Shown here: one piece after another, positions 3,524 to 54,570 of the stretch
Numbering within the stretch: the first letter of the stretch is position 1
Layout of the letters: every line of letters starts with the position of its first letter
Virus record (IMG/VR): IMGVR_UViG_3300035150_000119
Coordinates: 1 to 54,570 of that record
Direction: 5' to 3' (one strand)
Length of the DNA stretch: 54,570 nucleotides
Source of the DNA: a virus
Lineage: Duplodnaviria; Caudoviricetes
The notes under the pieces: generated by a model
What the model was told of the DNA's origin: nothing
What the model saw: only the letters and a program-made list of their open reading frames with translations
The model's database searches: none
Program-made: the position numbers and the translations under genes

Positions 3524-3581
3524 TATTGTACTCTGCTTTTCTCAATCCGGACTTGTAACCGTCTATGGTAGCATTACAATA
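3524..3581 (-). ncRNA. Twister ribozyme, type P1 (copy A)
   Basis: P1 UAUUG/CAAUA; UAA; P2 UGCU/AGCA; T2 AC/GU; P4 CGG/CCG; T1 UAC/GUA. Confidence 0.88.
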
Positions 3582-11732: not shown

Positions 11733-12314
11733 TTACTCTCCTTTCACTGCCCATTCGGGCTTAAAATACCATTTCCCGATAGCACTAGCACCCATGTCAT
11801 CACTCCAGCATATTGCACCAAGTATCATTACTGAATTTGTTGTAATTGTTGTTGTAATACTTCCGGGTACTCCACTTGCAAGATATACAGGTCTACCAAG
11901 TAACTGGCTAAAAAGTGTAGAAAAAGATGAATCATACACGATTCCTTCTTTCAATACAATACCTGTACTAATCCCAGCAGCGTAACTATCCATAGCCAAT
12001 GCTAACATACCGGTTTCAGCGCTTGCGCTTACATTCGCTAATCCCCATCCACCGCCGGAAACATTGTAATATAAAACATTCATAAAACTACATGCTGATA
12101 GAATTAATTGTGAATATTCTTTCCATCCCTTTGCCGTCTTATCTGTTGTAATATATTTTGCCTGCGGTTTTGACCAGAAATCGCCGGCATTAGCAAATTC
12201 ACTTTCCATTACAGTAATAACAAAATCTCTTAAATCTTGCGGTGAAATTTGTCCTGTAACATTATCAGCAAATAGTGCTAATATCTGTGCTTTAGACCTT
12301 TGCGTATCTGCCAT
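11733..12314 (-). CDS. Putative virion decoration/accessory fibre protein
   Basis: Position between baseplate and fibre; DNVTGQISPQDLRD N-terminus; beta-rich C-domain with G.PVYL. Confidence 0.65.
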   Translation of the reverse strand: MADTQRSKAQILALFADNVTGQISPQDLRDFVITVMESEFANAGDFWSKPQAKYITTDKTAKGWKEYSQLILSACSFMNVLYYNVSGGGWGLANVSASAETGMLALAMDSYAAGISTGIVLKEGIVYDSSFSTLFSQLLGRPVYLASGVPGSITTTITTNSVMILGAICWSDDMGASAIGKWYFKPEWAVKGE

Positions 12315-12338
12315 AATAATTCCTCCTATAATTTATTT

Positions 12339-13277: not shown

Positions 13278-13289
13278 TATATATCCTTT

Positions 13290-29391: not shown

Positions 29392-29693
29392 TCAAAAAGT
29401 ATATGCTCCTTTGTATTACAATATTTTTTAGCTGCATCTTTTGACCAATCTTTTTTCGGCATCCTTATAGCCTGTATCTCAACCTTATTTCCCTTAATCC
29501 CCCAAATAAAATCTAATCTTTTCCCATTGTGCGTCCCCGCATTATTCTCACGTCGAAATCTATCATACTTAGAGGGATCACGAAGCCTGCAACTATATTC
29601 ATTCGCAAACGGTTTACTTTCAGGATATGTCATTTCGATAATCTCGCATCCTTTCTTATTACAATAGAATTCATTCATATCTCTCTCCAACAA
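29388..29693 (-). CDS. Hypothetical protein between portal and gpF
   Basis: Overlaps both neighbours; P..NE.SCRLRDP..Y.RFRR. Confidence 0.65.
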   Translation of the reverse strand: MLERDMNEFYCNKKGCEIIEMTYPESKPFANEYSCRLRDPSKYDRFRRENNAGTHNGKRLDFIWGIKGNKVEIQAIRMPKKDWSKDAAKKYCNTKEHILFE

Positions 29694-33725: not shown

Positions 33726-33968
33726 TTATCTCTCTTTTATATTTTTTTTACTTGCAATAATGCTATTGTTGTTTCTTACCATCTCAAAATTATAATTGTT
33801 AATACTTGTTAACACATATTCGTTGTAGTTTTGCATTACAATAGACAAATCATCAAGATTGTTATTTTTTAACGCCTCATTGATTGCTAACAAAAAATTA
33901 GATTCAATTTGTTTTTTTATAGAGTCTACTTCTAGTTTATATCTATCTTCTATCATTTCTTTTATCAT
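33726..33968 (-). CDS. Hypothetical protein
   Basis: ATGA-coupled to terminase. Confidence 0.55.
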   Translation of the reverse strand: MIKEMIEDRYKLEVDSIKKQIESNFLLAINEALKNNNLDDLSIVMQNYNEYVLTSINNYNFEMVRNNNSIIASKKNIKER

Positions 33969-35293
33969 AATACTCTTATCCTTGGGCTTTTAGGCGTCCA
34001 CAAGACATTGAAAGCCCCGCTACAACTATCAATTTGATCAAAAAATTTTCCATCAGGGAATAATTCTAATTCATTGAAGAAGTCTTCATTCCAATGTCCT
34101 TTTACAACTTTTACATTGCCTGCTTCTGCTTGACTTGAAAATGGTGTTGCTCTTTGAAACTTACTACCGGAAACCTTATCGGGATAAAATGCAAACTCAG
34201 GTAGTATATTTCTACGATAATGATCAATATTGTTTTTACCTGAGGATCCGGGTTCCTGCTCCATATAGATTATTACATTTCTGCCATCCATATCAGCTGT
34301 TTGTCTAATTATTTGTTCGGTATATCTAGGCTCTTTTCGGAATCTAATTATTGATTCTATATATATAATATTATTCTTGTCTACTACCAGCTTAGTACCG
34401 GATGTATAAGCCGGTTCTTTATTAGATTTGGTTGGCTCTGTTGCTGCTAAATCCCAGTATCTTACCCGTTTTGCTTCAATCGGAGCTTCATTTACAAGTT
34501 CAAACCATTCTCGCTTAAATATATTACCTAATTGCTTAATTTCCCAGTCGCCCTCTTCCAGTTGCTTTCTTGTAATAATATCTAACTGCTGCAAACTTAA
34601 TTTATATTCATTAATATTAAGATGCTGATTGTCTTCCATTTTTGCAGGAATAAAAATTACACCTTTTTGTCTTGTTTCAGGATCAACATATCTTTTTTTT
34701 ACCCATTGTCCACGTGCTATTTGTTCACCGGCTGGTGGATTGCTCGCACATCTGAATCGTATAGGGATTGTGCTATCTTTTAACTTCCTTAATCTCGAAA
34801 ACATATATTTTGCCTGATTCTCTCTAATGTTAACAGCTTCATCAATACCAACATACTGAAATTGAGAACTTTGAAAATTAAAATGCGAACGAGGATCGTC
34901 TAAATATCCAAATGAAAGTGTCGCGCCCGATGGAAAATTCCATCGATTCTTATCGCCAGACCAATGCGCATCTGTACCGCTAAGCCATTGATGTGAAACA
35001 TCCATAATACTGTCGGGCATTGATAGATTCTTCATAGTATCCCTTATTAAAATAGCATTGTATTTTTGTTCATGCACATATAATAATGATGCTGTCAATA
35101 ATGCAATGCTCTTACCACCACCGGCACTCCCGCCGTAAAAAGCATCTAAACAATCAAGCATTAAGAAAATCAACTGCTTATCGGTTGGATTAATCGGTAT
35201 ATATTTCCGATTGATCCTCAATAAGTTTCTCAGAATCAATAATCGTTTCGTTGTGTTTTGCAAGATTGATGATTTTTGCAATTCTGTTATCAT
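33965..35293 (-). CDS. terL: Terminase large subunit
   Basis: Walker A GGSAGGGKS, Walker B IDEA, SNP, YWDLA, DQID. Confidence 0.95.
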   Translation of the reverse strand: MITELQKSSILQNTTKRLLILRNLLRINRKYIPINPTDKQLIFLMLDCLDAFYGGSAGGGKSIALLTASLLYVHEQKYNAILIRDTMKNLSMPDSIMDVSHQWLSGTDAHWSGDKNRWNFPSGATLSFGYLDDPRSHFNFQSSQFQYVGIDEAVNIRENQAKYMFSRLRKLKDSTIPIRFRCASNPPAGEQIARGQWVKKRYVDPETRQKGVIFIPAKMEDNQHLNINEYKLSLQQLDIITRKQLEEGDWEIKQLGNIFKREWFELVNEAPIEAKRVRYWDLAATEPTKSNKEPAYTSGTKLVVDKNNIIYIESIIRFRKEPRYTEQIIRQTADMDGRNVIIYMEQEPGSSGKNNIDHYRRNILPEFAFYPDKVSGSKFQRATPFSSQAEAGNVKVVKGHWNEDFFNELELFPDGKFFDQIDSCSGAFNVLWTPKSPRIRVL

Positions 35294-36462: not shown

Positions 36463-39057
36463 TCATAGGTGAAATAAGCTATTTATATTTTTATTAATAA
36501 TTCCTAATATCTTTTTAGCTTCTAAACTATGTGGATAAATTTCAAGATACCTATCAATATGTTTTTTAGCATTTTTAAAATCTTTTATCCCAATTTCTAA
36601 TTCGGCTAACCTTATGCAAAAACTATCAAAATCATGAGTTTTATCAACAATTCTATTTAATATTTTAAGACCTCTATGTAAATCTTTTAATAACCAAACT
36701 TGACCTCGCTCAAATCTAAATCTTAAATTCTCAACATCAAGTCTACATAATTTATCATATGCAGTTATAGATTTTTTAATATTACCAAGATATTGGTATG
36801 TTGTTGCTAATCCCCATAAAGCAACAATTTTATCCGGTATTATTTTATTTGCTTTTTTAATATACTTTAAAGCTAATTTAAAATTCTTTTCTTTCCCATA
36901 TTTTTTGCTCAATTCTATATATTTATTAAACTCTATTTCATTAGTTTTATCTTCTCTTGATTGAGCAATTAAAATACATTTATGTCTCATATTTAAACAT
37001 TTTTCATAAATTTTTAGCACATAGGATTCATTATTTAAATTATTAGATATTAAATATTCAGATTCTAATAATGGTCTTGCCCAATTGCCATTATCAATAA
37101 GTGTTTCCCATACTTTAATATCAATTTTAGGATTAGAATTTTCGATTACAGAATTTTCAATATTATCTAATTTTTTTAAAACATCATTATAAATTTCTAA
37201 TAATTTTTTTGAACTTTTTTTAGCTTCTTCTAATATCAGTTTACTTCTTTCTACTCTTATTGCTAAATCTTTTTTGTCTTTTAATAAATGATTAGTTTTT
37301 CCATTAACTTTTAATTCTCGACTTTGTATTTTTCTACTTATTTTATAGATATGCAATGATAATAATATACTTTGTTTTGCGGTATTTTGTGCCTCAATTG
37401 CATATTTTTCATTTTCAGTTAATAATTTTTTTAATTCTGTTTTTTTATTTTTATTTAACATAGAAGTTATTGGCTTTAATGCTTTATTACAGAGATCAAT
37501 TTCTTTTTTAAATAAATCAATTTCCCAGTTTAATCTTTTTTTTGTCTCTTTAATATCTTTTTTATAATCAGGTTTTAAAGTAAGATATTTTTTTAATTTA
37601 TTTTTATTTATTTTTCTTTTACAATATTTTTTTAATGCTAGTTTTAAACTCATTTGTTCACAGTGTTTTTTCTTTGCACCACCTTCGCAGGAATTAATAA
37701 ATTTAATATCAGGATGACTTTTAAAAATATTTTCCATAGAAGTAACAAAACTAGCCAATCCCATATTAGTAGGTACTGGTTTCTCAAAATATCCGGGGAT
37801 CCAAATAGCATTACCTAATTTTTGTTGATTTTTTAAACTTGAAAGAGGATCGGTAATATTCCAATCCATACTACCATCTTTATTTATTTCTATTTTTCCA
37901 ATAGCATCGCCTAGTTTATTATGGCTTAACTTTTTGTCTGGGTCATAAGCGCAATCAAATCCAATATGAATTACAGGATTGCAGCCTAAATGAACAGCTA
38001 ATCCAATAGCCATATGACCGACACTCCCCCCTTGGTCTAATTGTCCTTTTTCATTTAGCATTTCAACTACCGTATTAGTATTTGCTGGATTAAATCCAGT
38101 TACTATAAATTTAGGCCCTTGCCATTTTTCTAAAATCGGGGCATAAGTTCGATTCAATGCAACAAAAGGTATATCTTTAATATGCCAAAGATTATCGAAA
38201 TGCTCATAATTTACCTTACCATAATCTACACTGCAAATAAAATCAGGTTTTATTCCAAATGCTAATAATGGTCTTAACATTTGTGCAATTGCTATTATAA
38301 TTATTCTTTCTCTTATTTTTTTATCTAATAATTGTGGTAATAATTCGGTTACTGTCGGTGCGCTGAGAATTACAATAGCCGGTTTACCTTTGAATAAATT
38401 TTTAATATCTTTTATACCTCTATGTTTAATTACATAAGGTAAATTTTTAATATCATTTTCAGCAATTATCTCACCTGCACCCATTATTGTACCAACATTA
38501 CAAATAATCTGATTAACTAAATCCATTGTTAATTTTGTAATTTCTGAATAAATATCTTGCAATATGACTGTATAATTATCTACAACAGTATGCCATAATT
38601 GGATAACTTTTGTTGCATCTATAAATGCTAAAATTGTATTTAATTCTTCTTTCCTTGAACATATTAATAATCTGCCATCTTTTATATATTTACTAAAATT
38701 ATAATTTTCAAAAGCATAATTTATTAATTGCTGTATAGGTTCTATTAATAATAGAACATGTTTTTTTTCTGATTTTTGTAGTAATTTATTCAATAAATAT
38801 CCATTTCCTATCCCAATTAAAATAGTACATTCATCATTATACAAATTAATATTCTGAAATGTTTCATTTGCTTGTTTATGTTCATTATTTTTAGGATATG
38901 CAAGAATTTCTTTAGAACCTAATTTAATTAAGAAATTTTTTCTATTTATTATTTTTATATTTTCGTGTTCTTTCTCTTTTTCATTTAATAATTTTTCTTC
39001 AAATAATTTATTAAATTCATGTATTGTTTTAATATTTGCCTCATAACAATTATTCAT
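36463..39057 (-). CDS. Maf-family (DUF115/MAF_flag10) nonulosonate glycosyltransferase with C-terminal TPRs
   Basis: G.GNGY, IEP, N.IKNLP, L..FKGKPAI, GIKPDF..S.D, GGSV.H.A..LA..LGC.P...IG.D.AY, IN..EGGA. Confidence 0.85.
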   Translation of the reverse strand: MNNCYEANIKTIHEFNKLFEEKLLNEKEKEHENIKIINRKNFLIKLGSKEILAYPKNNEHKQANETFQNINLYNDECTILIGIGNGYLLNKLLQKSEKKHVLLLIEPIQQLINYAFENYNFSKYIKDGRLLICSRKEELNTILAFIDATKVIQLWHTVVDNYTVILQDIYSEITKLTMDLVNQIICNVGTIMGAGEIIAENDIKNLPYVIKHRGIKDIKNLFKGKPAIVILSAPTVTELLPQLLDKKIRERIIIIAIAQMLRPLLAFGIKPDFICSVDYGKVNYEHFDNLWHIKDIPFVALNRTYAPILEKWQGPKFIVTGFNPANTNTVVEMLNEKGQLDQGGSVGHMAIGLAVHLGCNPVIHIGFDCAYDPDKKLSHNKLGDAIGKIEINKDGSMDWNITDPLSSLKNQQKLGNAIWIPGYFEKPVPTNMGLASFVTSMENIFKSHPDIKFINSCEGGAKKKHCEQMSLKLALKKYCKRKINKNKLKKYLTLKPDYKKDIKETKKRLNWEIDLFKKEIDLCNKALKPITSMLNKNKKTELKKLLTENEKYAIEAQNTAKQSILLSLHIYKISRKIQSRELKVNGKTNHLLKDKKDLAIRVERSKLILEEAKKSSKKLLEIYNDVLKKLDNIENSVIENSNPKIDIKVWETLIDNGNWARPLLESEYLISNNLNNESYVLKIYEKCLNMRHKCILIAQSREDKTNEIEFNKYIELSKKYGKEKNFKLALKYIKKANKIIPDKIVALWGLATTYQYLGNIKKSITAYDKLCRLDVENLRFRFERGQVWLLKDLHRGLKILNRIVDKTHDFDSFCIRLAELEIGIKDFKNAKKHIDRYLEIYPHSLEAKKILGIINKNINSLFHL

Positions 39058-39218
39058 TACATAGCTCCTTGCTTAATTCATTAATTTTTTTATCGTTATT
39101 AGTAATTTGTTTAAATATTTTTTTAGCTTCTTTTGGATTTTCTTTAAAAGCTAATTTTAATAAATTCATCCAGCAGATATTATTCTTTTTTCTTATTTCA
39201 AATATCTTATCTATATTT

Positions 39219-39806
39219 TTATTTGTCATTTTGTAATTTTCTAATATATTTATTTTTTAAAATAGCATAAGCAACCACATCTTCAAATTTACCATTTAAA
39301 AATTGTCCTTGTTTAAATGTACCTTCATGTTTCATGTTTAATTTATTAAATACTCTTATCATACCTTTATTCAAAATTGAAGTTCCTGACCAGATACGAT
39401 TTAATCCTAATCTCATAAAGCCATGATAAAATAATACTTGACATGCTTCTGTTGTAAACCCTTGTCCCCAGCAATCAGTCTCTCCAATTACAACCGCAAA
39501 CTCTGCAGACCGATTTATCCAATCAATTCGTTGTAAACTAATCATACCTATATGTTTAGCGCTTTTTTTTTCAATGATCATAAATGATAATAAAGATTTA
39601 TCATTATCGCATCGCTGGAAAAAATTATTTAATTCACTTTGAGATTGAGGAAATAGACCATGACTATTATATTGATTAACTTTTAGATCGCCAAACCATG
39701 ACAAATAAGCAGATTTATTAAAATCAATCAAACCTTGTAATTTTTCTTTTGATGTAGATACTAAATATAACCGGTTGGTTTCTAACCTTAAAGATAATAT
39801 ATCCAT
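39219..39806 (-). CDS. GNAT (RimJ-type) acetyltransferase, PseH-like
   Basis: HIG.I.L..IDW.NR.AE, WG.G, F..L.L.RI, N. Confidence 0.85.
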   Translation of the reverse strand: MDILSLRLETNRLYLVSTSKEKLQGLIDFNKSAYLSWFGDLKVNQYNSHGLFPQSQSELNNFFQRCDNDKSLLSFMIIEKKSAKHIGMISLQRIDWINRSAEFAVVIGETDCWGQGFTTEACQVLFYHGFMRLGLNRIWSGTSILNKGMIRVFNKLNMKHEGTFKQGQFLNGKFEDVVAYAILKNKYIRKLQNDK

Positions 39807-39807
39807 T

Positions 39808-40650
39808 TTACCCCCTTAATCCGGATTTAGGATCAGCTAATTGTTTTAATTGTTTTTCAGATATTATAAATTTACTATTTATAATATTTGATATTTTAAA
39901 TAATTTATTTCTTAAATTTGAAATTTCAGATGAAGTCCAACAATGTTTATATTTACTCTCACTACCTAATTTATCGTTAAGATCGAAATGCAATTCAATA
40001 ATTTGAGCATAAGAATTTACGGCTTCTAATATAACATCTATATCTCTTGTGTGATCTGAATAGCCCACAAAAATATTTTTATTTGATTTATCTTTTTTTA
40101 ATTGTGTTTTCTGGAAAATTAATGAATAAATAATAGCAAGTCTATTAATTGCAGCTTCTTCAATTAATGTCGGATATTTACTGACACAATGTAATAAATA
40201 ATATTTACATTCTTTTAACCCTTCATCTAAAATTAAATCAATTAAATTAAGAATATTATCATTCGATGCTAATCCACAACTGATATATATATCCTTTTTA
40301 GTTTGCATACTTTTTTTTATAAGATTTTTTCTTAAAATATCAAAACTGCTTATTTTAATAAAATCTACATAATTTTTTATTTCTTCAATTGCTTCTAAAT
40401 AAAATGGCGTGATCCCAAAAAACAACCCTAATCTTTTACATAATTTGGCTATTTCTGGAATCCAATCAATATTAAGTTCTTGCTTTTTATATTTATTTTG
40501 GCTATTTTTATTTCTAGTTATTTTTTCAGCTTTGAATAACTGAAATTTTACTGCTGAAAACCCCATTTCTTTGGCACTTGTAATTAAATCGCAGCATCTT
40601 TTCCAATCTTGATTATGATTCGAGCCTATTTCTGCAATTATTTGTAGCAT
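39808..40650 (-). CDS. neuB: NeuB/PseI-family nonulosonate synthase (no C-terminal SAF domain)
   Basis: IAEIGSNHN, AVKFQ, KISS.D, LHCVS.YP, GYSDHT, IE.HF. Confidence 0.9.
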   Translation of the reverse strand: MLQIIAEIGSNHNQDWKRCCDLITSAKEMGFSAVKFQLFKAEKITRNKNSQNKYKKQELNIDWIPEIAKLCKRLGLFFGITPFYLEAIEEIKNYVDFIKISSFDILRKNLIKKSMQTKKDIYISCGLASNDNILNLIDLILDEGLKECKYYLLHCVSKYPTLIEEAAINRLAIIYSLIFQKTQLKKDKSNKNIFVGYSDHTRDIDVILEAVNSYAQIIELHFDLNDKLGSESKYKHCWTSSEISNLRNKLFKISNIINSKFIISEKQLKQLADPKSGLRG

Positions 40651-40820
40651 TATTTACCTCTTTTTATCAATTAATTTGTATAATTTTACTATTTCTGATA
40701 TTAAAAAATTCATTCCTAGTATAAAATATTCATGTTCGCTACAAGTTTGCATATTTTTCTCTATATATTCTATCATTTCATTTTTAATTTTCTTAATCAA
40801 CAATCCATCTTTATCCTCTA

Positions 40821-42101
40821 TCATTTTAATTCCTTACGGTTATCATAAACTTTATAAAAAGCATCTGCAATATCTTTAATGTCTAAATCAGATAATGGTA
40901 AAGCATGATAACTCATCATACAAAATTTATTATTTTGCAAATCTTCAACTACTGAAAAATTTAAATCCATATTAAATATAGGCATTTTATAGATAGGTTT
41001 TATATATCCATGCCAAATTAATGCATCAATTTTTGATGTTATTCCCATTTCAGTCCGACTTATAGTTAACTCAGACTTTACAGCATCAATAAATATATTT
41101 CTGCTAATACCAATTTTTTTTTCATCATATAAAAATGGTAACACATAATAACTATGTTCTGAGTTTGGTCGGCTATCACAAAATTTTATACCGTCGATTT
41201 TAATTGAATCTTTAATTTTTTTTACATTATTTTTTCTTAATTCTAATTCTTTATTTAAACATTTCAATTGCTCTATTAAAACAATAGCTTGCATTTCGGT
41301 CATTCTCATATTAAATCCATATTGATTTTCCATAAAATAATATTTAAGCTTACTAGGCATGCTATCAATAACGGCTTCCGCATGATTTCTAATCAATGCG
41401 CATTTCATATATAAATTATAATCTTTTGTTATAATAAATCCACCTTCACCGCAGGTACAATGTTTACCTTGCGTAAAACTAAAACATCCAATATCGCCAA
41501 AAGTCCCAGCTTGATTTCCGTTATATTTTGCGCCGAGTGCCTGAGCCGAATCTTCTATTACAAATAAATTATGTTTTTTTGCTATTTTGTTTATTTTTTC
41601 TACCTCGTATGGTTGGCCGAATAAATCTACAACAATTATGGCTTTTGTTTTTTTTGTGATTTTTTTCTCGATGCTTTTTGGATCAAGGCAAAAATAATTT
41701 TTTTCAACATCTGCGAATACCGGCGATGCAGAGTAAACCATCGGAGCTGTTGCAGAACATGTCATACTCCATGGGGTTACTATAACTTCATCATGAGAAT
41801 GTAATCCAATAGCACCGCATGAAATTTGCAAAGCTGAGGTACAACTATTTACAGCTAACACATAATATTTCTCTTTATTCTGAGAATTTTCATAAATCCA
41901 GTTTTCAAAATATTCTTCTAATTCTCTTATATATTTCCCTCCCCAAAAATGCTGGCCAGAACTACCTCTATATCCACTCAAAGTATTAGAAGAAACTAAA
42001 TTACATAATTTTTCTTTAATTATATCTTTATTATAAAGTTGTCTTTGAGGAAAAGGTGTTAACCGTATACTTTTACCACTATTAATTGATAATTTACTCA
42101 T
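40821..42101 (-). CDS. DegT/DnrJ/EryC1/StrS sugar aminotransferase
   Basis: NSCTSAL, IEDSAQA, FSF..GKH...GEGG, GFNMRM. Confidence 0.95.
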   Translation of the reverse strand: MSKLSINSGKSIRLTPFPQRQLYNKDIIKEKLCNLVSSNTLSGYRGSSGQHFWGGKYIRELEEYFENWIYENSQNKEKYYVLAVNSCTSALQISCGAIGLHSHDEVIVTPWSMTCSATAPMVYSASPVFADVEKNYFCLDPKSIEKKITKKTKAIIVVDLFGQPYEVEKINKIAKKHNLFVIEDSAQALGAKYNGNQAGTFGDIGCFSFTQGKHCTCGEGGFIITKDYNLYMKCALIRNHAEAVIDSMPSKLKYYFMENQYGFNMRMTEMQAIVLIEQLKCLNKELELRKNNVKKIKDSIKIDGIKFCDSRPNSEHSYYVLPFLYDEKKIGISRNIFIDAVKSELTISRTEMGITSKIDALIWHGYIKPIYKMPIFNMDLNFSVVEDLQNNKFCMMSYHALPLSDLDIKDIADAFYKVYDNRKELK

Positions 42102-42774
42102 ATAAAATTCCTTTTATATATTCAATTTCTTTTTCAAGCTGTTTAATATTATCGCAAATACTTTCTAATATAATTGGGGTTTTTTGTGTTTTCATTATAT
42201 ATGCAATATATAATAATTCATCAATTTTATTTTTTTGTGTATTACAAAAAAATTTATGACAATTATTATCAATAGTATTACTAAGATGAATTTGTTTTAT
42301 ATAATTTTTATTTTTTTCATAAAATGTAAATAGTTCATTTTGAGCCATTGCGTGGCTTACATCAAAACAAATATTATCAATATTCTCAAAACTATATTTT
42401 TTATAATCTACATTTTCATATAATATTGGAATATCTGCATTTTGAAATATTTTTGGAATATTATTAATTAAATCTATATGTGCAATAAATGAATCTATAT
42501 TTAATTTATTCCTTTTCAAAAATGATAAAGTTAGAAAATAAGAATTATATTGATTAGGAAGATGTAAGCTTTTATATTTTAAACTATTTATCCATTTTAC
42601 ATTTTCTTTTGACAAGGTAAAAGTTTTTAATTCTTCTTTTGCCAAAAGAATTTCAATAGCATTTATTTTATTCCCAAATTTTTCTTTATATAAACTTATA
42701 ATATTATTTCTATCTTCAATAAATTTATATGCACAACCTAAACTTAACCCAAAAATATAATTATTATTTATCAT
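42094..42774 (-). CDS. TIM-barrel sugar-phosphate isomerase/epimerase-like protein
   Basis: SLHLP, EN, CFDVSHA, IHLS, H, ILE. Confidence 0.7.
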   Translation of the reverse strand: MINNNYIFGLSLGCAYKFIEDRNNIISLYKEKFGNKINAIEILLAKEELKTFTLSKENVKWINSLKYKSLHLPNQYNSYFLTLSFLKRNKLNIDSFIAHIDLINNIPKIFQNADIPILYENVDYKKYSFENIDNICFDVSHAMAQNELFTFYEKNKNYIKQIHLSNTIDNNCHKFFCNTQKNKIDELLYIAYIMKTQKTPIILESICDNIKQLEKEIEYIKGILYE

Positions 42775-43557
42775 TTAATATTCCAACAATAATTTTGTAG
42801 ATTTTAAATTCTTATTAATTTCTAACAATTCTGGATTTCCTATAAGATAATTAATTATTTGCCAATATTTAATATATTTAAATTTATCAGAACCAAAATA
42901 GTCAATTATTTTTTTTATCAATTCTAAATCTTCCGGATAATCGATGCATAATCGCCATTCAGGATGAAAATGTTTTTTATCTGCTTCAAAATTAATTATT
43001 TTTAATTCTTCTCGATTAAATTTTTCTCTATAATGCCAAATATTCCAACCTGTCCAGTTAGGATTATAATCAATTCCTAAAATTTTCTCATATATTTCTC
43101 TTGTATATACTTGGATATCATAACCATCAGGAAAAGTTCGAGTAATACAATTTGCTGAATAACCTGCACCATAATCTATTAATCTATCAATTAACAAATC
43201 TGCTAATGAAGGATCAAAAAATGTACAACAATGACTTATATCTACAATAATATCAATATTAAATTGTTTTGCCGCATTTAAACATCTTAAAAAAATATCA
43301 TCATTATCACCAAATGAAACATTTATTTTAATTTCATTTTGTTTATAATTTTTTAAAAATTCAATTATGCTTTCAAATTCACCTTTTTTATTTGATATTG
43401 CTAATATTATTTCGTCAATATACAAAGAGGTTGAAGCTCTTTCTATTATCCATTCAAGCTGACATTTATCATGAATTTTCGATAATACTTTATTTGGGAA
43501 TCGATTACTGCTTAATCTTGTCGGAATGATTAACCCTACTTTATTATCTTTATACAT
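42775..43557 (-). CDS. spsF: SpsF-like cytidylyltransferase, paralog 2
   Basis: R..S.RFP.KV, FP.G.D, RL.IDYPED. Confidence 0.8.
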   Translation of the reverse strand: MYKDNKVGLIIPTRLSSNRFPNKVLSKIHDKCQLEWIIERASTSLYIDEIILAISNKKGEFESIIEFLKNYKQNEIKINVSFGDNDDIFLRCLNAAKQFNIDIIVDISHCCTFFDPSLADLLIDRLIDYGAGYSANCITRTFPDGYDIQVYTREIYEKILGIDYNPNWTGWNIWHYREKFNREELKIINFEADKKHFHPEWRLCIDYPEDLELIKKIIDYFGSDKFKYIKYWQIINYLIGNPELLEINKNLKSTKLLLEY

Positions 43558-44348
43558 TATTTTGCTCCTGCTATTTTTTGTTTACAATTTTTATTAATTT
43601 CTAATAATTTCGGATTCATTATTAAATAATTAATAATTTTATCATAAGAAATATTTTGAATATTATTTTTTCCAAAATGATCAATTATTTTTTCAATAAG
43701 TTCTAAATCTTCCGGGTAATCAATACATAATCGCCATTCAGGATGAAAATATATACTAGATGCAAGTATGTTGCCAAATTTACATTTTTTCTCCATCCCA
43801 AAAATACTTTGTATATCTGCAGAATATGCCCATATATTCCAACCTGAATGCTGTCTATGATTAGGATTAATAACTATTTCATTTGCTAAATCCAATAATT
43901 TAGAATTATATATTTGAATATCAAATCCTCGTGGATAACTTCTTACCATACAATTTGATAAATAATCATATTTTTCGTATATAAATCTTTCGAGCATTTC
44001 ATCAATCATAAACGGATCAATTAATGGACAATCAGCTGTAATATCTATAATAGAAATACTTTTTTTAGTTAGCCTAGTTATTTCTTTTGATACATTATAT
44101 ACTGTATCTATGGATTCATTTGGATTACCAATATTAAAACAAATAATATTATTTGTTATACAAAAGTCTAAAATTTCTACATCTGCTTCATCTGTTGTAC
44201 AGCCAACAACAATTTTATCTATTTTTTCACTAAGTTTTAATCTTTTAATCAAAAGGTCTAATAAATTTAAATCATCATAAATATTTTTCAAAACTTTACC
44301 CGGCAATCTAGTACTATTCATTCTTGCCTGAACTATCGCAACGTTCAT
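43557..44348 (-). CDS. spsF: SpsF-like cytidylyltransferase, paralog 1
   Basis: QARMNSTRLPGKVL, TADCP.IDP, RL.IDYPED. Confidence 0.9.
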   Translation of the reverse strand: MNVAIVQARMNSTRLPGKVLKNIYDDLNLLDLLIKRLKLSEKIDKIVVGCTTDEADVEILDFCITNNIICFNIGNPNESIDTVYNVSKEITRLTKKSISIIDITADCPLIDPFMIDEMLERFIYEKYDYLSNCMVRSYPRGFDIQIYNSKLLDLANEIVINPNHRQHSGWNIWAYSADIQSIFGMEKKCKFGNILASSIYFHPEWRLCIDYPEDLELIEKIIDHFGKNNIQNISYDKIINYLIMNPKLLEINKNCKQKIAGAK

Positions 44349-44356
44349 ATTTAATC

Positions 44357-45358
44357 CTAATTTAATATTTTTTGATATACTTTTTGGACATCAAGAGCAT
44401 TTGTATCAGTACAAATTAAATTATATTGGTTTTTATTTTTAGACTTGAAATATTCAAGGGTATTTCTGTACATAGAAATAAGAGACAATTCAATTTCATT
44501 ATTAATAATTTTTGTTGCCTTGTAATTCATACTCGAAAAATCACCATAAACTTTTTCAGATTTTTTAAAATAAATTTTAGTTTTTTTACCATGATCTATT
44601 AAATTTATTCTTGCATTTTCAGTCAAAATATCCATTTCAAAAATACTATAATCTAAACCATTCGCAGGTGTCAAAAATATATTTTTGCATTTATCGTATT
44701 CCATCCAGACCGGGACCGTAAAATCTTTTTCATCAAAATCATTATATATATTATTTCGATTTCCTAAAATTTTACCTTGTTTAAATTCTCCAAAAAAATA
44801 ATTACATAAATCAATAGCATGGCATGCGTCTCGCTGAAATCCACGAACATAAATAATATTGCATGCTCTAATTTTACCATACTTTTGGGTTTCAAGTTTT
44901 GATTTTATTTCTAAAATTGATGGACAAAACCTTCTTGTATAATTAATGACAATAGGGATATTCGCTTTTTGATATTGTTTGCTAATTTTTACAGCTTCAT
45001 CATAATTATTACAAAAAGGCTTTTCTGCAATAATTAGTTTTGGATTTAATTTTAAAACTTCTAACATTATATTTGAATGATAATTAGTGTTTACTGCAAT
45101 TGTAAAAATATCTATATCAATATGATTGTTTTTTAATCCTTTTAAATTAAAAAAACCTTTACATTCCCATTTTTTACATGCTTTTACCAATTTTTCTATA
45201 TTATTATCAATAATATAAAATTCATTTATTAGTTTTTTCTTTCTTAAAAAATATAAAGAATGTGCATGGGTTAGAATATTTTTAGAATGGGGACTATCAT
45301 ATTTATCTGGTTTTAATGCTCCGATACTACCTGCACCAATTATACAGACATTTAACAT
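44357..45358 (-). CDS. Gfo/Idh/MocA oxidoreductase
   Basis: IIGAGSIG, EKP, NY.RRF, H.ID. Confidence 0.9.
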   Translation of the reverse strand: MLNVCIIGAGSIGALKPDKYDSPHSKNILTHAHSLYFLRKKKLINEFYIIDNNIEKLVKACKKWECKGFFNLKGLKNNHIDIDIFTIAVNTNYHSNIMLEVLKLNPKLIIAEKPFCNNYDEAVKISKQYQKANIPIVINYTRRFCPSILEIKSKLETQKYGKIRACNIIYVRGFQRDACHAIDLCNYFFGEFKQGKILGNRNNIYNDFDEKDFTVPVWMEYDKCKNIFLTPANGLDYSIFEMDILTENARINLIDHGKKTKIYFKKSEKVYGDFSSMNYKATKIINNEIELSLISMYRNTLEYFKSKNKNQYNLICTDTNALDVQKVYQKILN

Positions 45359-45371
45359 AATTATCCTTTAA

Positions 45372-45530
45372 TTATTTAGATTTTATTTCTTTTATTATTT
45401 TTTGTATGTCTTCATGATTTTTTAAAATATCAATTATAAATTGGCGTATAGTTTTACGTTCGTATGCGGCTTGAATTTTAATCGCCGATTTTAAATCGTC
45501 ATCTAAATTTTCAATAATTATTGTATTCAT
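45372..45530 (-). CDS. Ribbon-helix-helix-like regulator (52 aa)
   Basis: MNTIIIENLDDDLKSAIKIQAAYERKTIRQFIIDIL matches Arc/FitA-type pattern; heads the sugar operon. Confidence 0.7.
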   Translation of the reverse strand: MNTIIIENLDDDLKSAIKIQAAYERKTIRQFIIDILKNHEDIQKIIKEIKSK

Positions 45531-45757: not shown

Positions 45758-46180
45758 TTAATTTTTTAAGTATTTTGCTATTTGCATAGTCTGATTATAA
45801 CTATAAGTTGCAATAATATTATCATAATTATCTTTCTTTTTGCCTGATGTACAATCATAATATTTGCCTTCATGTCGTACAACAGCATGGAATCGGCCTG
45901 AATCTGTTTTTACACCTATCAATTCAGTTTCTTTGCCTGTCTGATATTTCCATATAGCCATTAATAATATGGCCATATCTTCGCAATCGCCTTCTCCATC
46001 ATCTAACGTCTCGTCCGGCATTTTCCAATCATCTCCATCTTCTTTTTTATATTCAATATTATTATATATCCATTTGCATGCTTCTTTCATTGATGAAAAT
46101 TCAGGATTATTAAATGCAAAATCACCTCCCAATTCCCATGAACATGAGATTAATAAAAAAACCAATATAGCATTTTTCAT
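45758..46180 (-). CDS. Transglutaminase-like cysteine protease lipoprotein
   Basis: Lipobox LLISC; W..P.ETL..G.GDCED, HA, D. Confidence 0.8.
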   Translation of the reverse strand: MKNAILVFLLISCSWELGGDFAFNNPEFSSMKEACKWIYNNIEYKKEDGDDWKMPDETLDDGEGDCEDMAILLMAIWKYQTGKETELIGVKTDSGRFHAVVRHEGKYYDCTSGKKKDNYDNIIATYSYNQTMQIAKYLKN

Positions 46181-46253
46181 TTTTACCTCTATAAATTTAA
46201 TCTAATTTTAGGGAATAATTTTTTACATATTTTGCTATTTTGCTGGGTAAGGG

Positions 46254-46298
46254 CTATTTGCCCCTACCCCCTTTTCCTGTTCCAGATTCACAATTCAT
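46254..46298 (-). CDS. 14-aa peptide MNCESGTGKGGRGK
   Basis: AGGAGG 5 nt before ATG; ATGA overlap with the cysH stop. Confidence 0.55.
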   Translation of the reverse strand: MNCESGTGKGGRGK

Positions 46299-47071
46299 AA
46301 CAACCTCCTAATTTCTGGAAATTCATTCAAAATTTTATTATACTCATTAGGATATAACAATTTATTTACATGAATTCTACCATATTGATAACAATTTATG
46401 TCTGCTAAATTATTAACCCTAACTTTCTTGAAATCTAATTCATATTTTCTTGATCGAGCATAAACGGGATGAATAGGAATATTTTCTGAATATGCATACG
46501 AAAAAATGTCAATAACAGTCCATTTTGCAATAGGCTGTAAAATATCAGACAGCTCTCTTTTATTATAATAGCTCTCACCTCTAATGTAAAAATTTATTCT
46601 TCTCATTTTACTTTCTTCTTTTCTCAAACCCAATATAGTACCATTTATTTCATATTTATCCATTATTTTCCATCGTGGCTTTTCTAAAACATTGTATGCA
46701 AAATTAACTCCTGTATGTTTCTTTTGGATATTTTCTTTTAAATCTTTTTTAAAAAATTCTTTATAATTATCAACAAATGTTTCTTCATAATTGTTGATAA
46801 TATATTTTTCTAATACATAATTACGCAATCTTAATGTTTCTTCAGCTTCAAAGCCTGCATTATTCCACATAACTAATTTTAATTTATTTAATAAATCATA
46901 TTTTGATAAAATATGTAATATCGTCATAGAGTCTTTCCCAAAAGATAACGCTAACAGAGTATTATGATTTTTGATAAAATTATTACATAGTTCTACAGTT
47001 TTATTTTCTAACCATTTTTTATGAAATCGTAGCTTTAATGGATAATTATGAAATTCCTTCATAAACAACAC
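46295..47071 (-). CDS. cysH: CysH/PAPS-reductase-like protein of type IV-B locus
   Basis: PP-loop SFGKDS, GLR.EES..R, P...W...D. Confidence 0.88.
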   Translation of the reverse strand: MLFMKEFHNYPLKLRFHKKWLENKTVELCNNFIKNHNTLLALSFGKDSMTILHILSKYDLLNKLKLVMWNNAGFEAEETLRLRNYVLEKYIINNYEETFVDNYKEFFKKDLKENIQKKHTGVNFAYNVLEKPRWKIMDKYEINGTILGLRKEESKMRRINFYIRGESYYNKRELSDILQPIAKWTVIDIFSYAYSENIPIHPVYARSRKYELDFKKVRVNNLADINCYQYGRIHVNKLLYPNEYNKILNEFPEIRRLL

Positions 47072-47796
47072 TCATATTCTTTACAATTTTTTCCAAAATA
47101 AGGCGATCTTATCGGGTTATATATAATATCATCATTTTTTATAGGTAATTTCTTTTGTCTTAAGTATACTAATGGCATCGGTCTTATATAATGTTTAGTT
47201 ACATTATCATATAATTCCAACTTATTTATTTCTTTAATTTTCATTTCACATTTTCCAAATCCTTGAGCCGTCCTTTTGCCTATATTTACACCCATATTCA
47301 ACAACATCTCTAAGATTTCAATATCACCAATACCTTTTATTATATATTTTTTTTTGGTTGAATACAAGACCGGTTTTTTATAATTTTTAAAAACTCCTCC
47401 ATTTAAACGAACTCTTTTATCTTTTACAATAGGAATTATCGGCTCCTCAGTTTTTTTTATCATAAAACAAATTTTATCAGGAATATCAAAAAACCCTCCA
47501 CAAAGATAAAAATATTCACGATACCCATTTTCAAAATGAAAATATTTTTTTTGGATAGGGACCTCAATATATAATCTTTCATCAAAATCTAATGACAAAT
47601 TAAAATACTGATCTTTTAAAACATGCCAAAAACAATAATGAGACATCACCGCATCAAAGAATAAAAAAGAATTTCCCACACGACCAATTTTAAAATTGAC
47701 CTCTATCTCAAATGGTTTATAATATTCTAATCTTTGCTTAAGATTATAATTCCAATTGTTAGCAAGTTCTTTTATTTTTTCTGATAATTTTCTCAT
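47059..47796 (-). CDS. csf3: Csf3 (type IV Cas5-like RAMP)
   Basis: FDA, G..K.Y..P, GD, G-loop IGKR..QGFG, RP.P, ..PY. Confidence 0.8.
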   Translation of the reverse strand: MRKLSEKIKELANNWNYNLKQRLEYYKPFEIEVNFKIGRVGNSFLFFDAVMSHYCFWHVLKDQYFNLSLDFDERLYIEVPIQKKYFHFENGYREYFYLCGGFFDIPDKICFMIKKTEEPIIPIVKDKRVRLNGGVFKNYKKPVLYSTKKKYIIKGIGDIEILEMLLNMGVNIGKRTAQGFGKCEMKIKEINKLELYDNVTKHYIRPMPLVYLRQKKLPIKNDDIIYNPIRSPYFGKNCKEYECCL

Positions 47797-47797
47797 A

Positions 47798-48982
47798 TTA
47801 CATACTCATAACATAATTTTTAATTTTTTCTTTATTTTCTTCAAGATATTTTTCAGCCAATTCAGGATTAATTTCATAATTATTTAACAATCTATATTCA
47901 ACTCTCCCAAATCCAGCTCGTCCCATCCCCCCTATCTTACCGTCTTTTTGAAGTTGAACTAATGCAAGATCAAAAAAAGATTTTTCTAATTCAGAAAGAT
48001 AAAAAGTATTTATCGACCATGCAAAACTGGATCCGGTTTCAACGCAAATAGCTGAATATTTCATTTGAATTGCAGATGATTTCTTTTTTTCGGTTTCTTC
48101 ACTAACAATACCTTCAAAATCATCACGACGAGTCATGAAATATTCCTTCAAAAAACTCATGCCATCTCGTTTGATTTCTGGATTTGTTTCCATACAATCT
48201 AATAATGCGAAATTCCAATTCATCTTACCCGGTAAATCTTCTTTGCCTAACATTGCACCAAAAATTGATAAGAAAGGCAGTTGCTCTCTTAATTTAATTT
48301 TTTCTTCAATATTCAAAAATCCGTCGGCAGTAGTTAACATCCCACCATTGAAAAAAGTATAATAAATTTCAGCTCTCAATTCTCTTTGATAATCATTACC
48401 AAAAATTTTTGAAAAAACATAATTCATTAAACATCTTCTTGTATGCCCTCTTAATGAATTACCCGGTATTACCGGGATTGTTATATCAATCTCAACCTCA
48501 CAAAGATCATCGTTAATCTCAAATTCATTTTTGAATAATGAAGAATCTTCACAATAGACCGCAGATGTAACAAAAATATCTATATTTTCTCTTGCCCATT
48601 GGATCAAACTCATATTTTCTTCTCTATTCAAAGTTAATGCAAATTTTGTAACATATTGATAACAATCAGATGATGACAATTCAACCTTATCTTTTAGATT
48701 CGTAAAAAAACTCGATATAGTATTTGTCATCAAAGAAACAAAAACACGATCACGAAAAATATCGGCATAACTACGATAACCGTAACTTTCATGTCGAGTA
48801 TTTCTGTATACACTTCCAACAATTTTAATAAATTCTTTTAATTTTTCTTTATCTACTTTAACAACTTTTTTTTCTTCCTGTGGTAAATGTAAAAGATAAG
48901 GCATACTAATTGTAGATACAGAATCGCTACCAACATGGATAGGACTCAAAGCATTAATTTTAAATTCAATCGTTTGGATCAT
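47798..48982 (-). CDS. csf2: Csf2 (type IV Cas7) with large helical insertion
   Basis: A.SPIH.G, P.IPGNSLRG..R, F.GG.L, P..SIFG, TR.DD, QM.Y, IGG....GFG. Confidence 0.88.
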   Translation of the reverse strand: MIQTIEFKINALSPIHVGSDSVSTISMPYLLHLPQEEKKVVKVDKEKLKEFIKIVGSVYRNTRHESYGYRSYADIFRDRVFVSLMTNTISSFFTNLKDKVELSSSDCYQYVTKFALTLNREENMSLIQWARENIDIFVTSAVYCEDSSLFKNEFEINDDLCEVEIDITIPVIPGNSLRGHTRRCLMNYVFSKIFGNDYQRELRAEIYYTFFNGGMLTTADGFLNIEEKIKLREQLPFLSIFGAMLGKEDLPGKMNWNFALLDCMETNPEIKRDGMSFLKEYFMTRRDDFEGIVSEETEKKKSSAIQMKYSAICVETGSSFAWSINTFYLSELEKSFFDLALVQLQKDGKIGGMGRAGFGRVEYRLLNNYEINPELAEKYLEENKEKIKNYVMSM

Positions 48983-49643
48983 CTTTTTTCTCCTTCATTA
49001 AACAATCAATAATCAATTCATAACATTGATTGTTTTTATATTTTTTTATTTTAACAATATCATTAAAACTTAATTGATATTTGCTAATCTTTTTTGGATT
49101 TATTACACAAGATTTTAATTCATCTTTGGATATACCTAATTGAAATAGATTATTAACTATTTTATATATGTCTTTATATTTGTTTCTTTCAAATAAAATA
49201 TTATTTTCTTCTGTGCATACCCAAAATTTATTTTCATAATGAGATAATCTTGCTTTATAAAAAATATGTTTTTGTCCAGTTTTAGAAAAACATAATAAAA
49301 AAGGTGTTTGATATTCATAATTAAATAGATAATCTATTTTTTCTTTCATATCTATCGTTTTAAATTTTTTATTTTCAATAATAAAACTATACAATCTTAA
49401 TCCACATCGTTTCCCTTTCGGAGAATCTAAATAATTATCATTTAATAACTTTTGACAATAATCACAAATCAAATTAGAATTACGATATTTCATGTCAACA
49501 TAACCATTGAATGATTTAGATAATATTTTTTCTCGGGTTTCAAAATTATTAGCTTTTTCAATACCGCACATGCAACATTGTCCCTCAATATTATCTTTAT
49601 AATTTTTTTGTTCAATTGCTTCAACAATAATTTTTGAAATCAT
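48966..49643 (-). CDS. csf1: Csf1 (type IV Cas8-like large subunit)
   Basis: C.MCG and C.YC zinc pairs, PF......GQKH motif; heads csf2-csf3-cysH. Confidence 0.8.
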   Translation of the reverse strand: MISKIIVEAIEQKNYKDNIEGQCCMCGIEKANNFETREKILSKSFNGYVDMKYRNSNLICDYCQKLLNDNYLDSPKGKRCGLRLYSFIIENKKFKTIDMKEKIDYLFNYEYQTPFLLCFSKTGQKHIFYKARLSHYENKFWVCTEENNILFERNKYKDIYKIVNNLFQLGISKDELKSCVINPKKISKYQLSFNDIVKIKKYKNNQCYELIIDCLMKEKKDDPND

Positions 49644-53853: not shown

Positions 53854-54181
53854 TTGTTTTACTCCTAATTAATAAATATATTTCTCTTGGTGCACATTCA
53901 AAAAACTTAAATAATGCAGGGCATAACCATCCTCGCATATTATTTTCAAAAATATACCAATTCCCCCCATACTCCTCTTTTTCCCATATTAATTTGAAAT
54001 TATAGTCAGGAAATTGAGAATTTGAAAAATAGCAATCGAACACTGTTGCATCACCAACTATCTTATTGATAATTTCAGGAATACCTGACACAAAAGGCTC
54101 TTTTACTAATCCTCTTTCTTTGTCGTCAAATACCCATGCCGCCCCAAATTTATATATTTGAATATAAAATATATTATTCAT
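53831..54181 (-). CDS. Conserved hypothetical protein
   Basis: WVFDD...L..EPFV.G, GGNWY, GWLCPAL..FF...P..IY. Confidence 0.8.
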   Translation of the reverse strand: MNNIFYIQIYKFGAAWVFDDKERGLVKEPFVSGIPEIINKIVGDATVFDCYFSNSQFPDYNFKLIWEKEEYGGNWYIFENNMRGWLCPALFKFFECAPREIYLLIRSKTNERKTNL

Positions 54182-54570
54182 CCTTCGCCCCCTTGCTTCT
54201 CAGTAATTCTATAATGTCATTATAGCCACAAAAATTCGCCCATATCAATGTTGTACTGCCATAATTATTTTTCGCATTCACATCAGCTCCATTGTCAATC
54301 AATAGTCTAACAATATCAATATGACCAAAGCGACTCGCAAACATCAATGCTGTATACTCATATTTATCTCTGACATTAACATCAGCTCCATTGTCAATCA
54401 ATAGTCTAACAATATCAATATGACCATTACGACTAGCCAATAACAATGCAGTATAGCCATTGCCACCCTTAGCATTCACATCAGCTCCATGATCAATTAA
54501 GTGTTCGATAACATTAATATCAGCATTCCATAGAACCCATACCTGCCAGTCAATTTCAGCCTCATTATAT
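54174..54570 (-). CDS. Ankyrin repeat protein, 5'-truncated by the window edge
   Basis: Frame open to the window end (YNEAEIDWQVWVLWNAD...), three full repeats. Confidence 0.9.
   Translation of the reverse strand, partial: YNEAEIDWQVWVLWNADINVIEHLIDHGADVNAKGGNGYTALLLASRNGHIDIVRLLIDNGADVNVRDKYEYTALMFASRFGHIDIVRLLIDNGADVNAKNNYGSTTLIWANFCGYNDIIELLRSKGAKDE

Follow-up and report, generated by a model that had tools for sequence, protein, structure and literature searches.

A contractile-tailed phage contig carrying a type IV-B-like csf cassette with a Cas11-like domain inside Csf2

Canonical type IV-B systems of CRISPR-Cas have a separate cas11 gene, which encodes the small subunit (PMC7038947, PMC8175902, PMC7937560). 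Where, then, is the small subunit in a type IV-B-like locus that has no such gene? This question is raised by four minus-strand genes, csf1, csf2, csf3 and a cysH-like gene, at positions 46295-49643 of the IMG/VR virus record IMGVR_UViG_3300035150_000119. The record is a linear sequence of 54570 nt with a G+C content of ~30% and nearly all genes on the minus strand; it was analyzed whole and is referred to as the window. No open reading frame (ORF) of cas11 size lies between csf1 and csf2. The cas11 gene was very probably not lost, but became a helical domain within Csf2. This replacement of the cas11 gene by a domain of Csf2 is the new element of the locus; it is widespread among the Csf2 representatives scanned, and it is phage-borne in every locus inspected. 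No description of a Csf2-internal Cas11 domain was found in full-text literature searches, with supplements and subscription papers outside their scope.

The first indication of an internal domain comes from the length and domain architecture of Csf2. The csf2 gene (47798-48982, minus strand) encodes a type IV Cas7 backbone protein of 394 residues, as compared to ~270-330 residues in canonical loci. Where Csf2 is ~270-330 residues long, a cas11-sized ORF of ~111-145 codons lies between csf1 and csf2; where Csf2 is 394-429 residues long, there is no cas11-sized ORF at this position. The Csf2_0_IV profile covers only residues 168-390 of the protein in the window, and the RAMPs profile spans residues 8-362 with a gap. 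An AlphaFold2 model of Csf2 has a predicted local distance difference test score (pLDDT) of 83, and orders the protein as strands at residues 30-33 and 39-42, seven helices at residues 45-153, and strands at residues 162-172. In this model, a helical domain of ~118 residues (residues 43-160, encoded by 48503-48856 on the minus strand) is predicted to interrupt an N-terminal beta-hairpin, lying between its two strands. Foldseek searches with the Csf2 model returned type IV Csf2 structures at the top, with type IV-A Csf2 8rc3 as the best match (E-value 1.5e-8) and the type IV-B chain 7jhy_a also matched (8.8e-7). The Csf2 backbone therefore has the RAMP fold that an earlier note on this DNA, written from the sequence alone, had proposed as a check of its reading of the locus.

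Evidence that the inserted domain is related to Cas11 came from profile searches. When the insertion segment from the window was scanned alone using PADLOC, the sole matches were to typeIV_Cas11 models, with E-values of 3.4e-5 and 2.6e-4. The same scan was applied to the insertion segments of five relatives, from loci L003, L004, L006, L009 and L077. In each of the six segments, typeIV_Cas11 was the only family matched, with E-values from 8.1e-9 (L077) to 2.7e-4 and alignments that mostly included 80-100 of 114-122 positions. Profile-profile comparison gave a similar picture. A set of standalone Cas11 proteins was assembled by taking the ORF immediately upstream of canonical csf2. It was drawn from 27 loci, among 42 inspected of the 85 collected. 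Three of these ORFs (L036, L039 and L063) looked unrelated and were removed, leaving 24, and PADLOC identified as Cas11 all 17 of these 24 that were scanned. HHalign aligned a 20-sequence profile of the insertion with the profile of the 24 standalone ORFs over 91 columns, with a probability of 92% and an E-value of 6.5e-7, and the alignment includes three collinear motifs common to both profiles. The probability was 0.1% for a reversed profile, 0.0-0.3% for five column shuffles, and 85% when the three odd rows were retained.

Structure comparison provided an additional line of evidence. When folded alone by AlphaFold2 from a six-sequence alignment, the insertion domain was modeled as six helices with a pLDDT of 82. 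VIA-align was used to compare this model with 48161 representative chains. The top-ranked chain, 7jhy_h, had a Z score of 8.9 and a root-mean-square deviation of 2.8 Å, with 103 of 118 residues aligned. This 143-residue chain was the only one with a Z score of at least 8, the next having a Z score of 5.0. Since 7JHY models only Csf2, in six chains, and Cas11 (PMC7937560), we infer from the chain length that 7jhy_h is Cas11.

Interpretation of the structural match is complicated by several observations that weigh against a Cas11 origin of the insertion. Foldseek searches with the insertion domain returned no match at E<=0.001, and placed the Cas11 chain 7jhy_g 30th, with an E-value of 6.7, despite this chain having the highest listed TM-score (0.56). 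The insertion profile matched nothing among PDB sequences at E<=10; a PDB search with standalone Cas11 sequence likewise gave nothing useful. Identity of the insertion to standalone Cas11 is ~15%, and helical bundles may reach VIA-align Z scores of ~13 by common arrangement alone. Moreover, a simple fusion of neighboring cas11 and csf2 genes would not place the domain within a hairpin. One way to account for these observations is that the insertion is a lineage-specific helical elaboration of Cas7, of the "fingers" type, that resembles Cas11, with the true cas11 being either dispensable or located in missing sequence. Type IV-A systems do function without Cas11. Nonetheless, such an elaboration is improbable given the three motifs shared with Cas11 in collinear order and the clean HHalign controls; the matches to a single family in six of six diverged relatives, as well as in 22 of 27 further representatives described below; the lone top structural match being to the type IV Cas11 fold, which was called novel among small subunits (PMC7937560); and the observation that no fused locus has an ORF of cas11 size separating csf1 from csf2. 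Together, the profile matches and the modeled fold suggest that the insertion very probably originates from type IV Cas11.

The insertion is found in many relatives of the Csf2 protein in the window. All 22 full-length homologues collected (391-411 residues, 46-99% identity) carry it; the Csf2 alignment was built from 19 homologues, the window protein and three short forms, leaving out P0001, P0009, P0013 and the fragment P0023. In the viral collection, an alignment query found three loci and a single-protein query found none. A metagenome scan identified 154 relatives, and the match reached into or across the insertion in 5 of the 80 that were kept (L006, L007, L008, L009 and L077), with fused relatives in the locus search extending down to 23% Csf2 identity. 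Among 1.84 billion cluster representatives, 387 proteins matched Csf2 at E<=0.001, and the best 150 of these included 43 long forms that were scanned for domain order. The insertion layout was found in 27 of the 43, the Csf2 model starting at position 33-45 after residue 165-225, and the inserted part matched Cas11 models in 22 of these 27. If the protein from L004 (P0022) is included, the insertion layout occurs in 28 of the best 150 representatives. On this basis, the fused form was judged not to be a tiny clade. It follows that annotation based on a cas11 gene would score a substantial fraction of IV-B loci incorrectly as incomplete.

The remaining long forms have other arrangements. An N-terminal extension precedes a whole Csf2 in 15 of the 43; the extension has a Cas11 match in five and none in ten, and these ten may be over-called starts. 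In the five with a match (P0067, P0069, P0073, P0148 and P0162), a Cas11-like region is fused end-to-end ahead of the whole Csf2, and in one further protein, P0104, a Csf1 region precedes the Csf2 core. Species-representative genomes were scanned using peptide patterns from the Csf2 alignment, which divergent forms may escape; the insertion was found in 0 of the 29 loci from these genomes, with the core motif lying no further in than residue 73 in 22 of them and at residue 92 in one. The other six are long ORFs; long ORFs in four high-G+C genomes were considered as fused forms and rejected, all six that were checked being a whole Csf2 after a spurious upstream extension with no Cas11 match.

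Phylogenetic analysis was used to ask how often the fused form arose. In a FastTree phylogeny of 141 Csf2 cores, the 29 rows with the insertion were clustered, and at least five changes were needed to explain their distribution; five is nonetheless best read as an upper bound on the true number of changes, because the rows labeled canonical include truncated gene calls. In an IQ-TREE phylogeny of 36 locus-derived cores, five fused rows formed a clade with 100/100 support on a long branch, with L077 in an unresolved position beside it, and the fused form was monophyletic in 22% of bootstrap trees. Both trees held only relatives found by the present query, with no labeled IV-A, IV-C, IV-D or IV-E references. 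A single origin of the fused form is compatible with the IQ-TREE phylogeny.

Assignment of the cassette to type IV-B is supported by the genes on either side of csf2. The csf1 gene (48966-49643, minus strand) encodes a 225-residue protein resembling the type IV large subunit, with two CxxC cysteine pairs near the N-terminus, in which C23 and C63 are invariant across six relatives; it has no match among PDB sequences at E<=1. The csf3 gene (47059-47796, minus strand) encodes a 245-residue Cas5-like protein with 40% identity to the product of L003:7794-8516 and 34% to that of L009:7380-8132. The cysH-like gene (46295-47071, minus strand) encodes a 258-residue PP-loop protein of the PAPS-reductase family. 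PADLOC identified all three Csf proteins (Csf1_0_IV, 2e-26; Csf2_0_IV, 4.2e-39; Csf3_0_IV, 2.4e-14), and matches above the Pfam gathering thresholds were found for RAMPs on Csf2 (2.9e-6) and PAPS_reduct on the CysH-like protein (3.4e-16). Four typeIV_Cas7 models in PADLOC outscored every Csm3 model on Csf2. The closest PDB sequence to Csf2 is a chain that its depositors named "Cas7c" (2.9e-7), followed by IV-B 7jhy (1e-4) and IV-A chains (2e-3). The best-ranked NCBIfam families were also the expected ones, TIGR03114 for Csf1 (3.8e-11), TIGR03115 for Csf2 and TIGR03116 for Csf3 (8.2e-8). Counting against the assignment, the Csf1, Csf2 and Csf3 equivalogs scored 43, 44 and 32 bits, as compared to curated cut-offs of 140, 130 and 140 bits. 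These scores are far under the cut-offs, so the Csf proteins are divergent, remote members of their families. The earlier note had proposed a Csf1-3 profile search as a test of its identification, and the PADLOC matches bear the identification out for all three proteins.

The layout of the locus is likewise that of type IV-B. The protein that marks a locus as type IV, a Cas7 of the csf2 type, is present according to PADLOC and Foldseek, with the NCBIfam equivalog below its cut-off. The large-subunit-like csf1 and the Cas5 gene csf3 adjoin csf2 in one overlapping operon: there is a 17-nt overlap of csf1 with csf2, a single nucleotide lies between csf2 and csf3, and csf3 overlaps cysH by 13 nt, counted from a GTG start. 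The upstream gene, which encodes a membrane-anchored, weakly SLT-like protein, stops 3 nt before csf1, suggesting that the cassette continues a longer operon. The associated cysH-like gene has the PP-loop motif and no conserved cysteine, and the sequence in hand has no array, Cas6, adaptation module, DinG or RecD, or nuclease. The missing feature is the separate cas11 gene. The coupled csf1-csf2-csf3-cysH operon described in the earlier note is thus present as four minus-strand ORFs, and its classification as an array-less type IV-B operon holds; the note overlooked the absence of a separate cas11 and the domain inside Csf2.

Could such a cassette be a degenerating leftover, without function, of a plasmid system that a phage picked up? 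In favor of this are the lack of a known IV-B function and the low curated-family scores. This possibility is largely refuted, and is very improbable, because the ORFs are intact and translationally coupled and are under purifying selection. Ratios of nonsynonymous to synonymous substitution rates (dN/dS), calculated relative to L006 and L003, were 0.08-0.20 for the insertion, 0.13-0.21 for the Csf2 core, and 0.15-0.37 for csf1, csf3 and cysH; since dS exceeds 1 and synonymous sites are saturated, the ratios are only rough, yet they are clearly below 1. In addition, relatives whose Csf2 identity is as low as 23% retain the same set of four parts. A csf1 gene, a fused csf2, a csf3 gene and a PAPS-reductase-family gene occur in six of six loci (window, L003, L004, L006, L009 and L077), with the PAPS-reductase-family gene adjoining the csf set in all except L006, where a longer, phage-type enzyme is encoded one ORF away. 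The gene order is permuted to csf3-cysH-csf1-csf2 in L003. Phage genes surround the cassette in all six loci. In five of them, the flanks contain phage replication, recombination and methylase genes, including those for a helicase, primase, RecT, RecE, Sak4, SSB and an exonuclease that has a Cas4 domain, and L077 also has a tape measure gene. These data show that the window carries an authentic type IV-B-like Csf cassette, which is maintained by selection on the contig of a contractile-tailed phage.

Two relatives differ in their gene content. In L006, the closest relative fetched (80% Csf2 identity), csf3 is followed in the region 11919-13890 by a 286-residue ORF without a family match, and a 376-residue phage-type PAPS reductase (phrog_2302, 2e-80) replaces the short CysH-like gene. 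L005, which is also a viral contig, carries the IV-B genes in their canonical form, with cas11 as a gene of its own.

The CysH-like protein retains the features of a nucleotide-binding enzyme and lacks those of a sulfate-assimilation reductase. It matches PHROG family phrog_2302 (1.7e-19); its best PDB match is CysD 1zun (5e-7), and PADLOC gives a weak match to BrxP (4.9e-6). The SxGKDS nucleotide-binding motif is conserved, and in alignments with seven relatives the invariant positions are S43, G45, K46, D47, S48, G148, R150, E153 and R157, with no invariant cysteine. A bona fide CysH would conserve the C-terminal catalytic cysteine and exceed the curated score thresholds. Neither was found: the NCBIfam cysH, PAPS-reductase and CysD models scored 30-41 bits, as compared to cut-offs of 154-413. 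IV-B CysH-like proteins have been described in the same way, with the PP-loop kept and no catalytic cysteine (PMC8175902). By analogy, the likeliest activity would be adenylation of a substrate rather than sulfate reduction, because the ATP-pyrophosphatase motif is kept, no redox cysteine is conserved, and the fold has relatives that modify tRNA or DNA. DndC, SspD, BrxP and the phage PAPS reductases of phrog_2302 all share the PAPS-reductase fold and a nucleotide-binding motif with the CysH-like protein. One difference is that this protein is much shorter than BrxP or DndC, and its gene is associated with csf genes, not with dnd, ssp or brx genes.

PADLOC found no cas1, cas2, cas6, cas11, dinG or recD among the other 74 ORFs of at least 48 codons; the sole related match was a Cas4-like PD-(D/E)xK domain (3.2e-6) in a recombination exonuclease gene at 4728-5594. 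No CRISPR-like spaced repeats were detected in the 54.6-kb window, and in five related loci no array-like repeats were detected in up to 10 kb of sequence around the cassette. The earlier note's claim that the locus lacks cas6, cas1/2, dinG and an array is therefore borne out for the sequence in hand. That the record may be the whole genome, as the same note suggested, is made less likely by CheckV, which puts completeness at only 64%. Statements of absence are limited to the sequence in hand for this reason, and it counts against the reading of the locus given here that up to ~1/3 of the genome may be missing from the contig. There are nonetheless hints that the true genome is about the size of the present contig, with little missing: two sister Csf2 proteins are encoded on contigs of 53188 and 53117 nt, such that all three sister contigs are 53-54.6 kb.

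One model that exploits the possible missing sequence is guided silencing of the kind seen in type IV-A, where CRISPR RNAs (crRNAs) from an unsequenced array or from the host would direct the complex to bind and so prevent the transcription or replication of host genes or of a competitor. The low CheckV completeness leaves room for an array, and one published virus-borne IV-B locus has a mini-array (PMC10848311). IV-A interference is nuclease-free (PMC12669027), and Csf3 (Cas5) and Csf1 have been kept under purifying selection. However, the lack of CRISPR-like repeats in the window and around the five related cassettes, the lack of Cas6, the lack of the DinG helicase that IV-A requires, and the similar sizes of the three sister contigs make this model unlikely.

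A second model supposes that the complex is a sponge for crRNAs, and hence an anti-CRISPR: it would absorb the mature crRNAs of the host, or assemble idly on them, disarming type I or type III immunity. In favor of this model, the cassette is phage-borne and has no array, Cas6 or nuclease, and the model has been suggested in print for IV-B (PMC7038947, PMC7937560). Its probability is low for three reasons. The published IV-B complex bound mostly non-CRISPR RNA despite co-expression of a I-E array and Cas6 (PMC7937560), the model leaves unexplained the PP-loop enzyme conserved in six of six loci, and the authors of PMC7038947 deem so complex an anti-CRISPR unlikely.

The earlier note also listed RNA elements of the phage as candidate guides. 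One of these, a tRNA-like RNA, was not recovered, with ARAGORN finding 0 tRNA genes in the window and Rfam giving no match there at gathering thresholds. A second, the G+C-rich hairpin that follows cysH (46245-46269, minus strand), is real: it has a 10-bp stem and a 5-nt loop, it begins 26 nt past the cysH stop codon, and the RNA fold of 46181-46300 has a free energy of -30 kcal/mol (z -3.5). It occurs as a single copy in the window, with no U-run after it, and it was not called by a terminator scan. In L004, the equivalent place is occupied by a hairpin with another sequence, and L003 and L006 have none. The hairpin is probably a transcript 3' end or a stabilizer, not a guide. For the third candidate, ribozyme-cut fragments, three minus-strand matches to the twister-P1 model were found (2065-2120, 2772-2826 and 3525-3580), all of them sub-threshold. 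They score 29.7-38.7 bits, as compared to a gathering threshold of 67.2 bits, with E-values of 5e-5 to 0.02 for the whole window, and each match covers the full model length with one optional stem missing. The matches lie just upstream of a repeated module of ribosome-binding site and start codon, which is present in four copies before consecutive small ORFs. Judging by the sequence, these twister-P1-like sites may act as ribozymes that process a polycistronic phage transcript.

The published IV-B structure provides a framework for a mechanism. The 7JHY complex has six Csf2 subunits wrapped around RNA, with five Cas11 subunits located at the Csf2-Csf2 interfaces (PMC7937560). By analogy, Csf2 copies from the phage cassette would polymerize on RNA of ~55-60 nt. 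Since Cas11 is inserted in Csf2, each backbone subunit would bring its own small subunit, and the minor filament would be made in cis from these internal Cas11 domains, at a fixed stoichiometry of 1:1. Csf3 and Csf1 would cap the ends of the complex. With no nuclease or helicase present, the complex would be expected to bind complementary or bound nucleic acid rather than cut it, and the CysH-like enzyme would adenylate a substrate. The cassette would presumably be expressed together with replication and recombination genes. The best overall explanation of the locus, and a reasonably probable one, is a IV-B-like phage cassette with Cas11 inside Csf2 that forms an RNA-bound filament associated with an adenylating enzyme. 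The most likely biological role, which is more tentative, is that of an RNA-scaffolded binding and modification machine used by the phage in conflict with host defenses or rival mobile elements. A difficulty for this proposal is that "guided" action is unproven across the subtype, since the published IV-B complex bound heterogeneous RNA with no crRNA preference (PMC7937560).

A bolder proposal is that the Csf2-Cas11 protein could be a self-sufficient, single-gene double filament adopted by phages, coating RNA in a guide-independent or self-templated manner and delivering the PP-loop adenylating enzyme to nucleic acid. This is a speculative and rather unlikely possibility. If it is true, every type IV-B system would have the double filament as its functional core, and the filament would represent a new class of phage counter-defense, in which RNA or DNA is not cut but is marked or masked by chemical means. 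The phage form compresses IV-B to four small genes and fixes the Cas7:Cas11 ratio at 1:1. Retention of the small subunit after the cas11 gene vanished argues that the minor filament is essential to IV-B activity. The compact phage cassette would also lend itself well to heterologous expression, RNA pull-down and structural work.

There are clear parallels with known type IV systems. Published variants of type IV include loci with no csf1, a csf1-csf3 fusion, replacement of dinG by recD, and IV-A2, which cleaves its target. Type IV systems on phages and prophages, and IV-B on an archaeal virus, have been published (PMC10848311, PMC7038947, PMC11656645), and so phage carriage of IV-B is not in itself new. 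IV-B, a class 1 subtype, has no demonstrated function, and its link to CysH-like proteins is a recognized open question (PMC7937560, PMC8175902, PMC7038947). The IV-B locus on a megaplasmid of Mycobacterium sp. JS623 (7JHY; PMC7937560) resembles the phage cassette in having Csf1, Csf2, Csf3, a Cas11 module and a CysH-like gene and no array, Cas6, adaptation genes, nuclease or helicase. Important differences are the location of Cas11 within Csf2 here, the tailed-phage carrier in place of a plasmid, and the strong divergence of the proteins. The IV-B locus of the proposed "Fuxiviridae", which are viruses of Bathyarchaeia, also combines a virus genome, a IV-B effector module and an adjacent CysH-like gene, and has been proposed to act in counter-defense (PMC10848311). 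The "Fuxiviridae" locus has a mini-array with two repeats and one spacer, and a Cas11 protein was aligned from it, whereas the cassette in the window has no repeat pair and has Cas11 inside Csf2; the "Fuxiviridae" host is archaeal. Type IV-A structures (8RC3 and 7XG0) are the best structural matches of the Csf2 core, and IV-A is also nuclease-free. In other respects IV-A differs from the phage cassette, since it has DinG, Cas6/Csf5 and an array, and lacks Cas11 and CysH.

A Cas11 domain that is part of the backbone protein also has parallels in type III systems. The III-E protein Cas7-11 (gRAMP) has a Cas11 domain covalently joined to its Cas7 domains. In the Cas7-11i protein of III-I, Cas11 is similarly joined to Cas7 domains, placing the small subunit in cis (PMC12669027). 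The III-E and III-I proteins are single large polypeptides that do not polymerize, with several different Cas7 domains and with Cas11 located between them. The phage Csf2, by contrast, belongs to another CRISPR type, has one Cas7 unit with Cas11 in a loop, is expected to polymerize, and offers no evidence of RNase activity.

The carrier is a contractile-tailed phage, i.e., a myovirus, in agreement with the tailed phage named in the earlier note. PHROGs profiles identified a contractile-tail structural module at ~8-35 kb, with matches to tail sheath (8e-146), major head protein (2e-69) and large terminase (6e-100), and further matches to tube, baseplate hub and wedge, tape measure, protease and portal. 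Among 50,697 deposited phages, the closest match to the large terminase (33965-35293) is from Methanobacterium phage psiM2 (43.5% identity over 96% of its length); a tblastn search of the same records with Csf2 found nothing at E<=1e-3. The best match to the major head protein is from Azospirillum phage Cd (41%), and that to the sheath is from Bordetella phages (40%). The head and sheath matches point to phages of unrelated bacteria, and none of these matches names a host. Seven sequencing runs are on record in connection with this DNA, all of them DNA and none RNA; two contain at least half of the sampled words, and one of the two may be the source. The window encodes an M23 peptidase and a protein with a weak SLT match, below the Pfam cut-off, and has Shine-Dalgarno sites. 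These sequence features lean slightly toward a bacterial host. A 140-residue transglutaminase-like protein with a cysteine-peptidase fold is encoded between the cassette and a group of sugar genes (45758-46180); its sole match is to one archaeal virus, and is weak.

Several other features of the window were observed. A 52-residue FitA-like ribbon-helix-helix protein is also encoded between the cassette and the sugar genes, at 45372-45530 (24.6 bits, as compared to a Pfam cut-off of 27). Immediately downstream of the cassette, a pathway for a nonulosonic-acid-type sugar (36463-45358, minus strand) includes a NeuB-family synthase, a DegT-family aminotransferase, a GNAT acetyltransferase, two CTP_transf_3 cytidylyltransferases and a GFO/IDH/MocA oxidoreductase, and the same region encodes an 864-residue MptE-like (Maf-type) protein with TPR repeats. 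The portal gene (29671-32199, minus strand) encodes 842 residues, of which 1-307 match the portal profile and 409-697 match homing-endonuclease models; by sequence, it may carry an intein or an inserted endonuclease. Three ankyrin-repeat proteins are encoded at 60-455, 6884-7288 and 54174-54479. Two of these genes are at opposite ends of the contig, where the DNA at 64-310 and at 54184-54430 is 79% alike; they are paralogues, not terminal repeats. Lastly, a 138-nt unit is repeated six times in tandem at 9498-10372, within a gene for a 691-residue tail-fiber-like protein.

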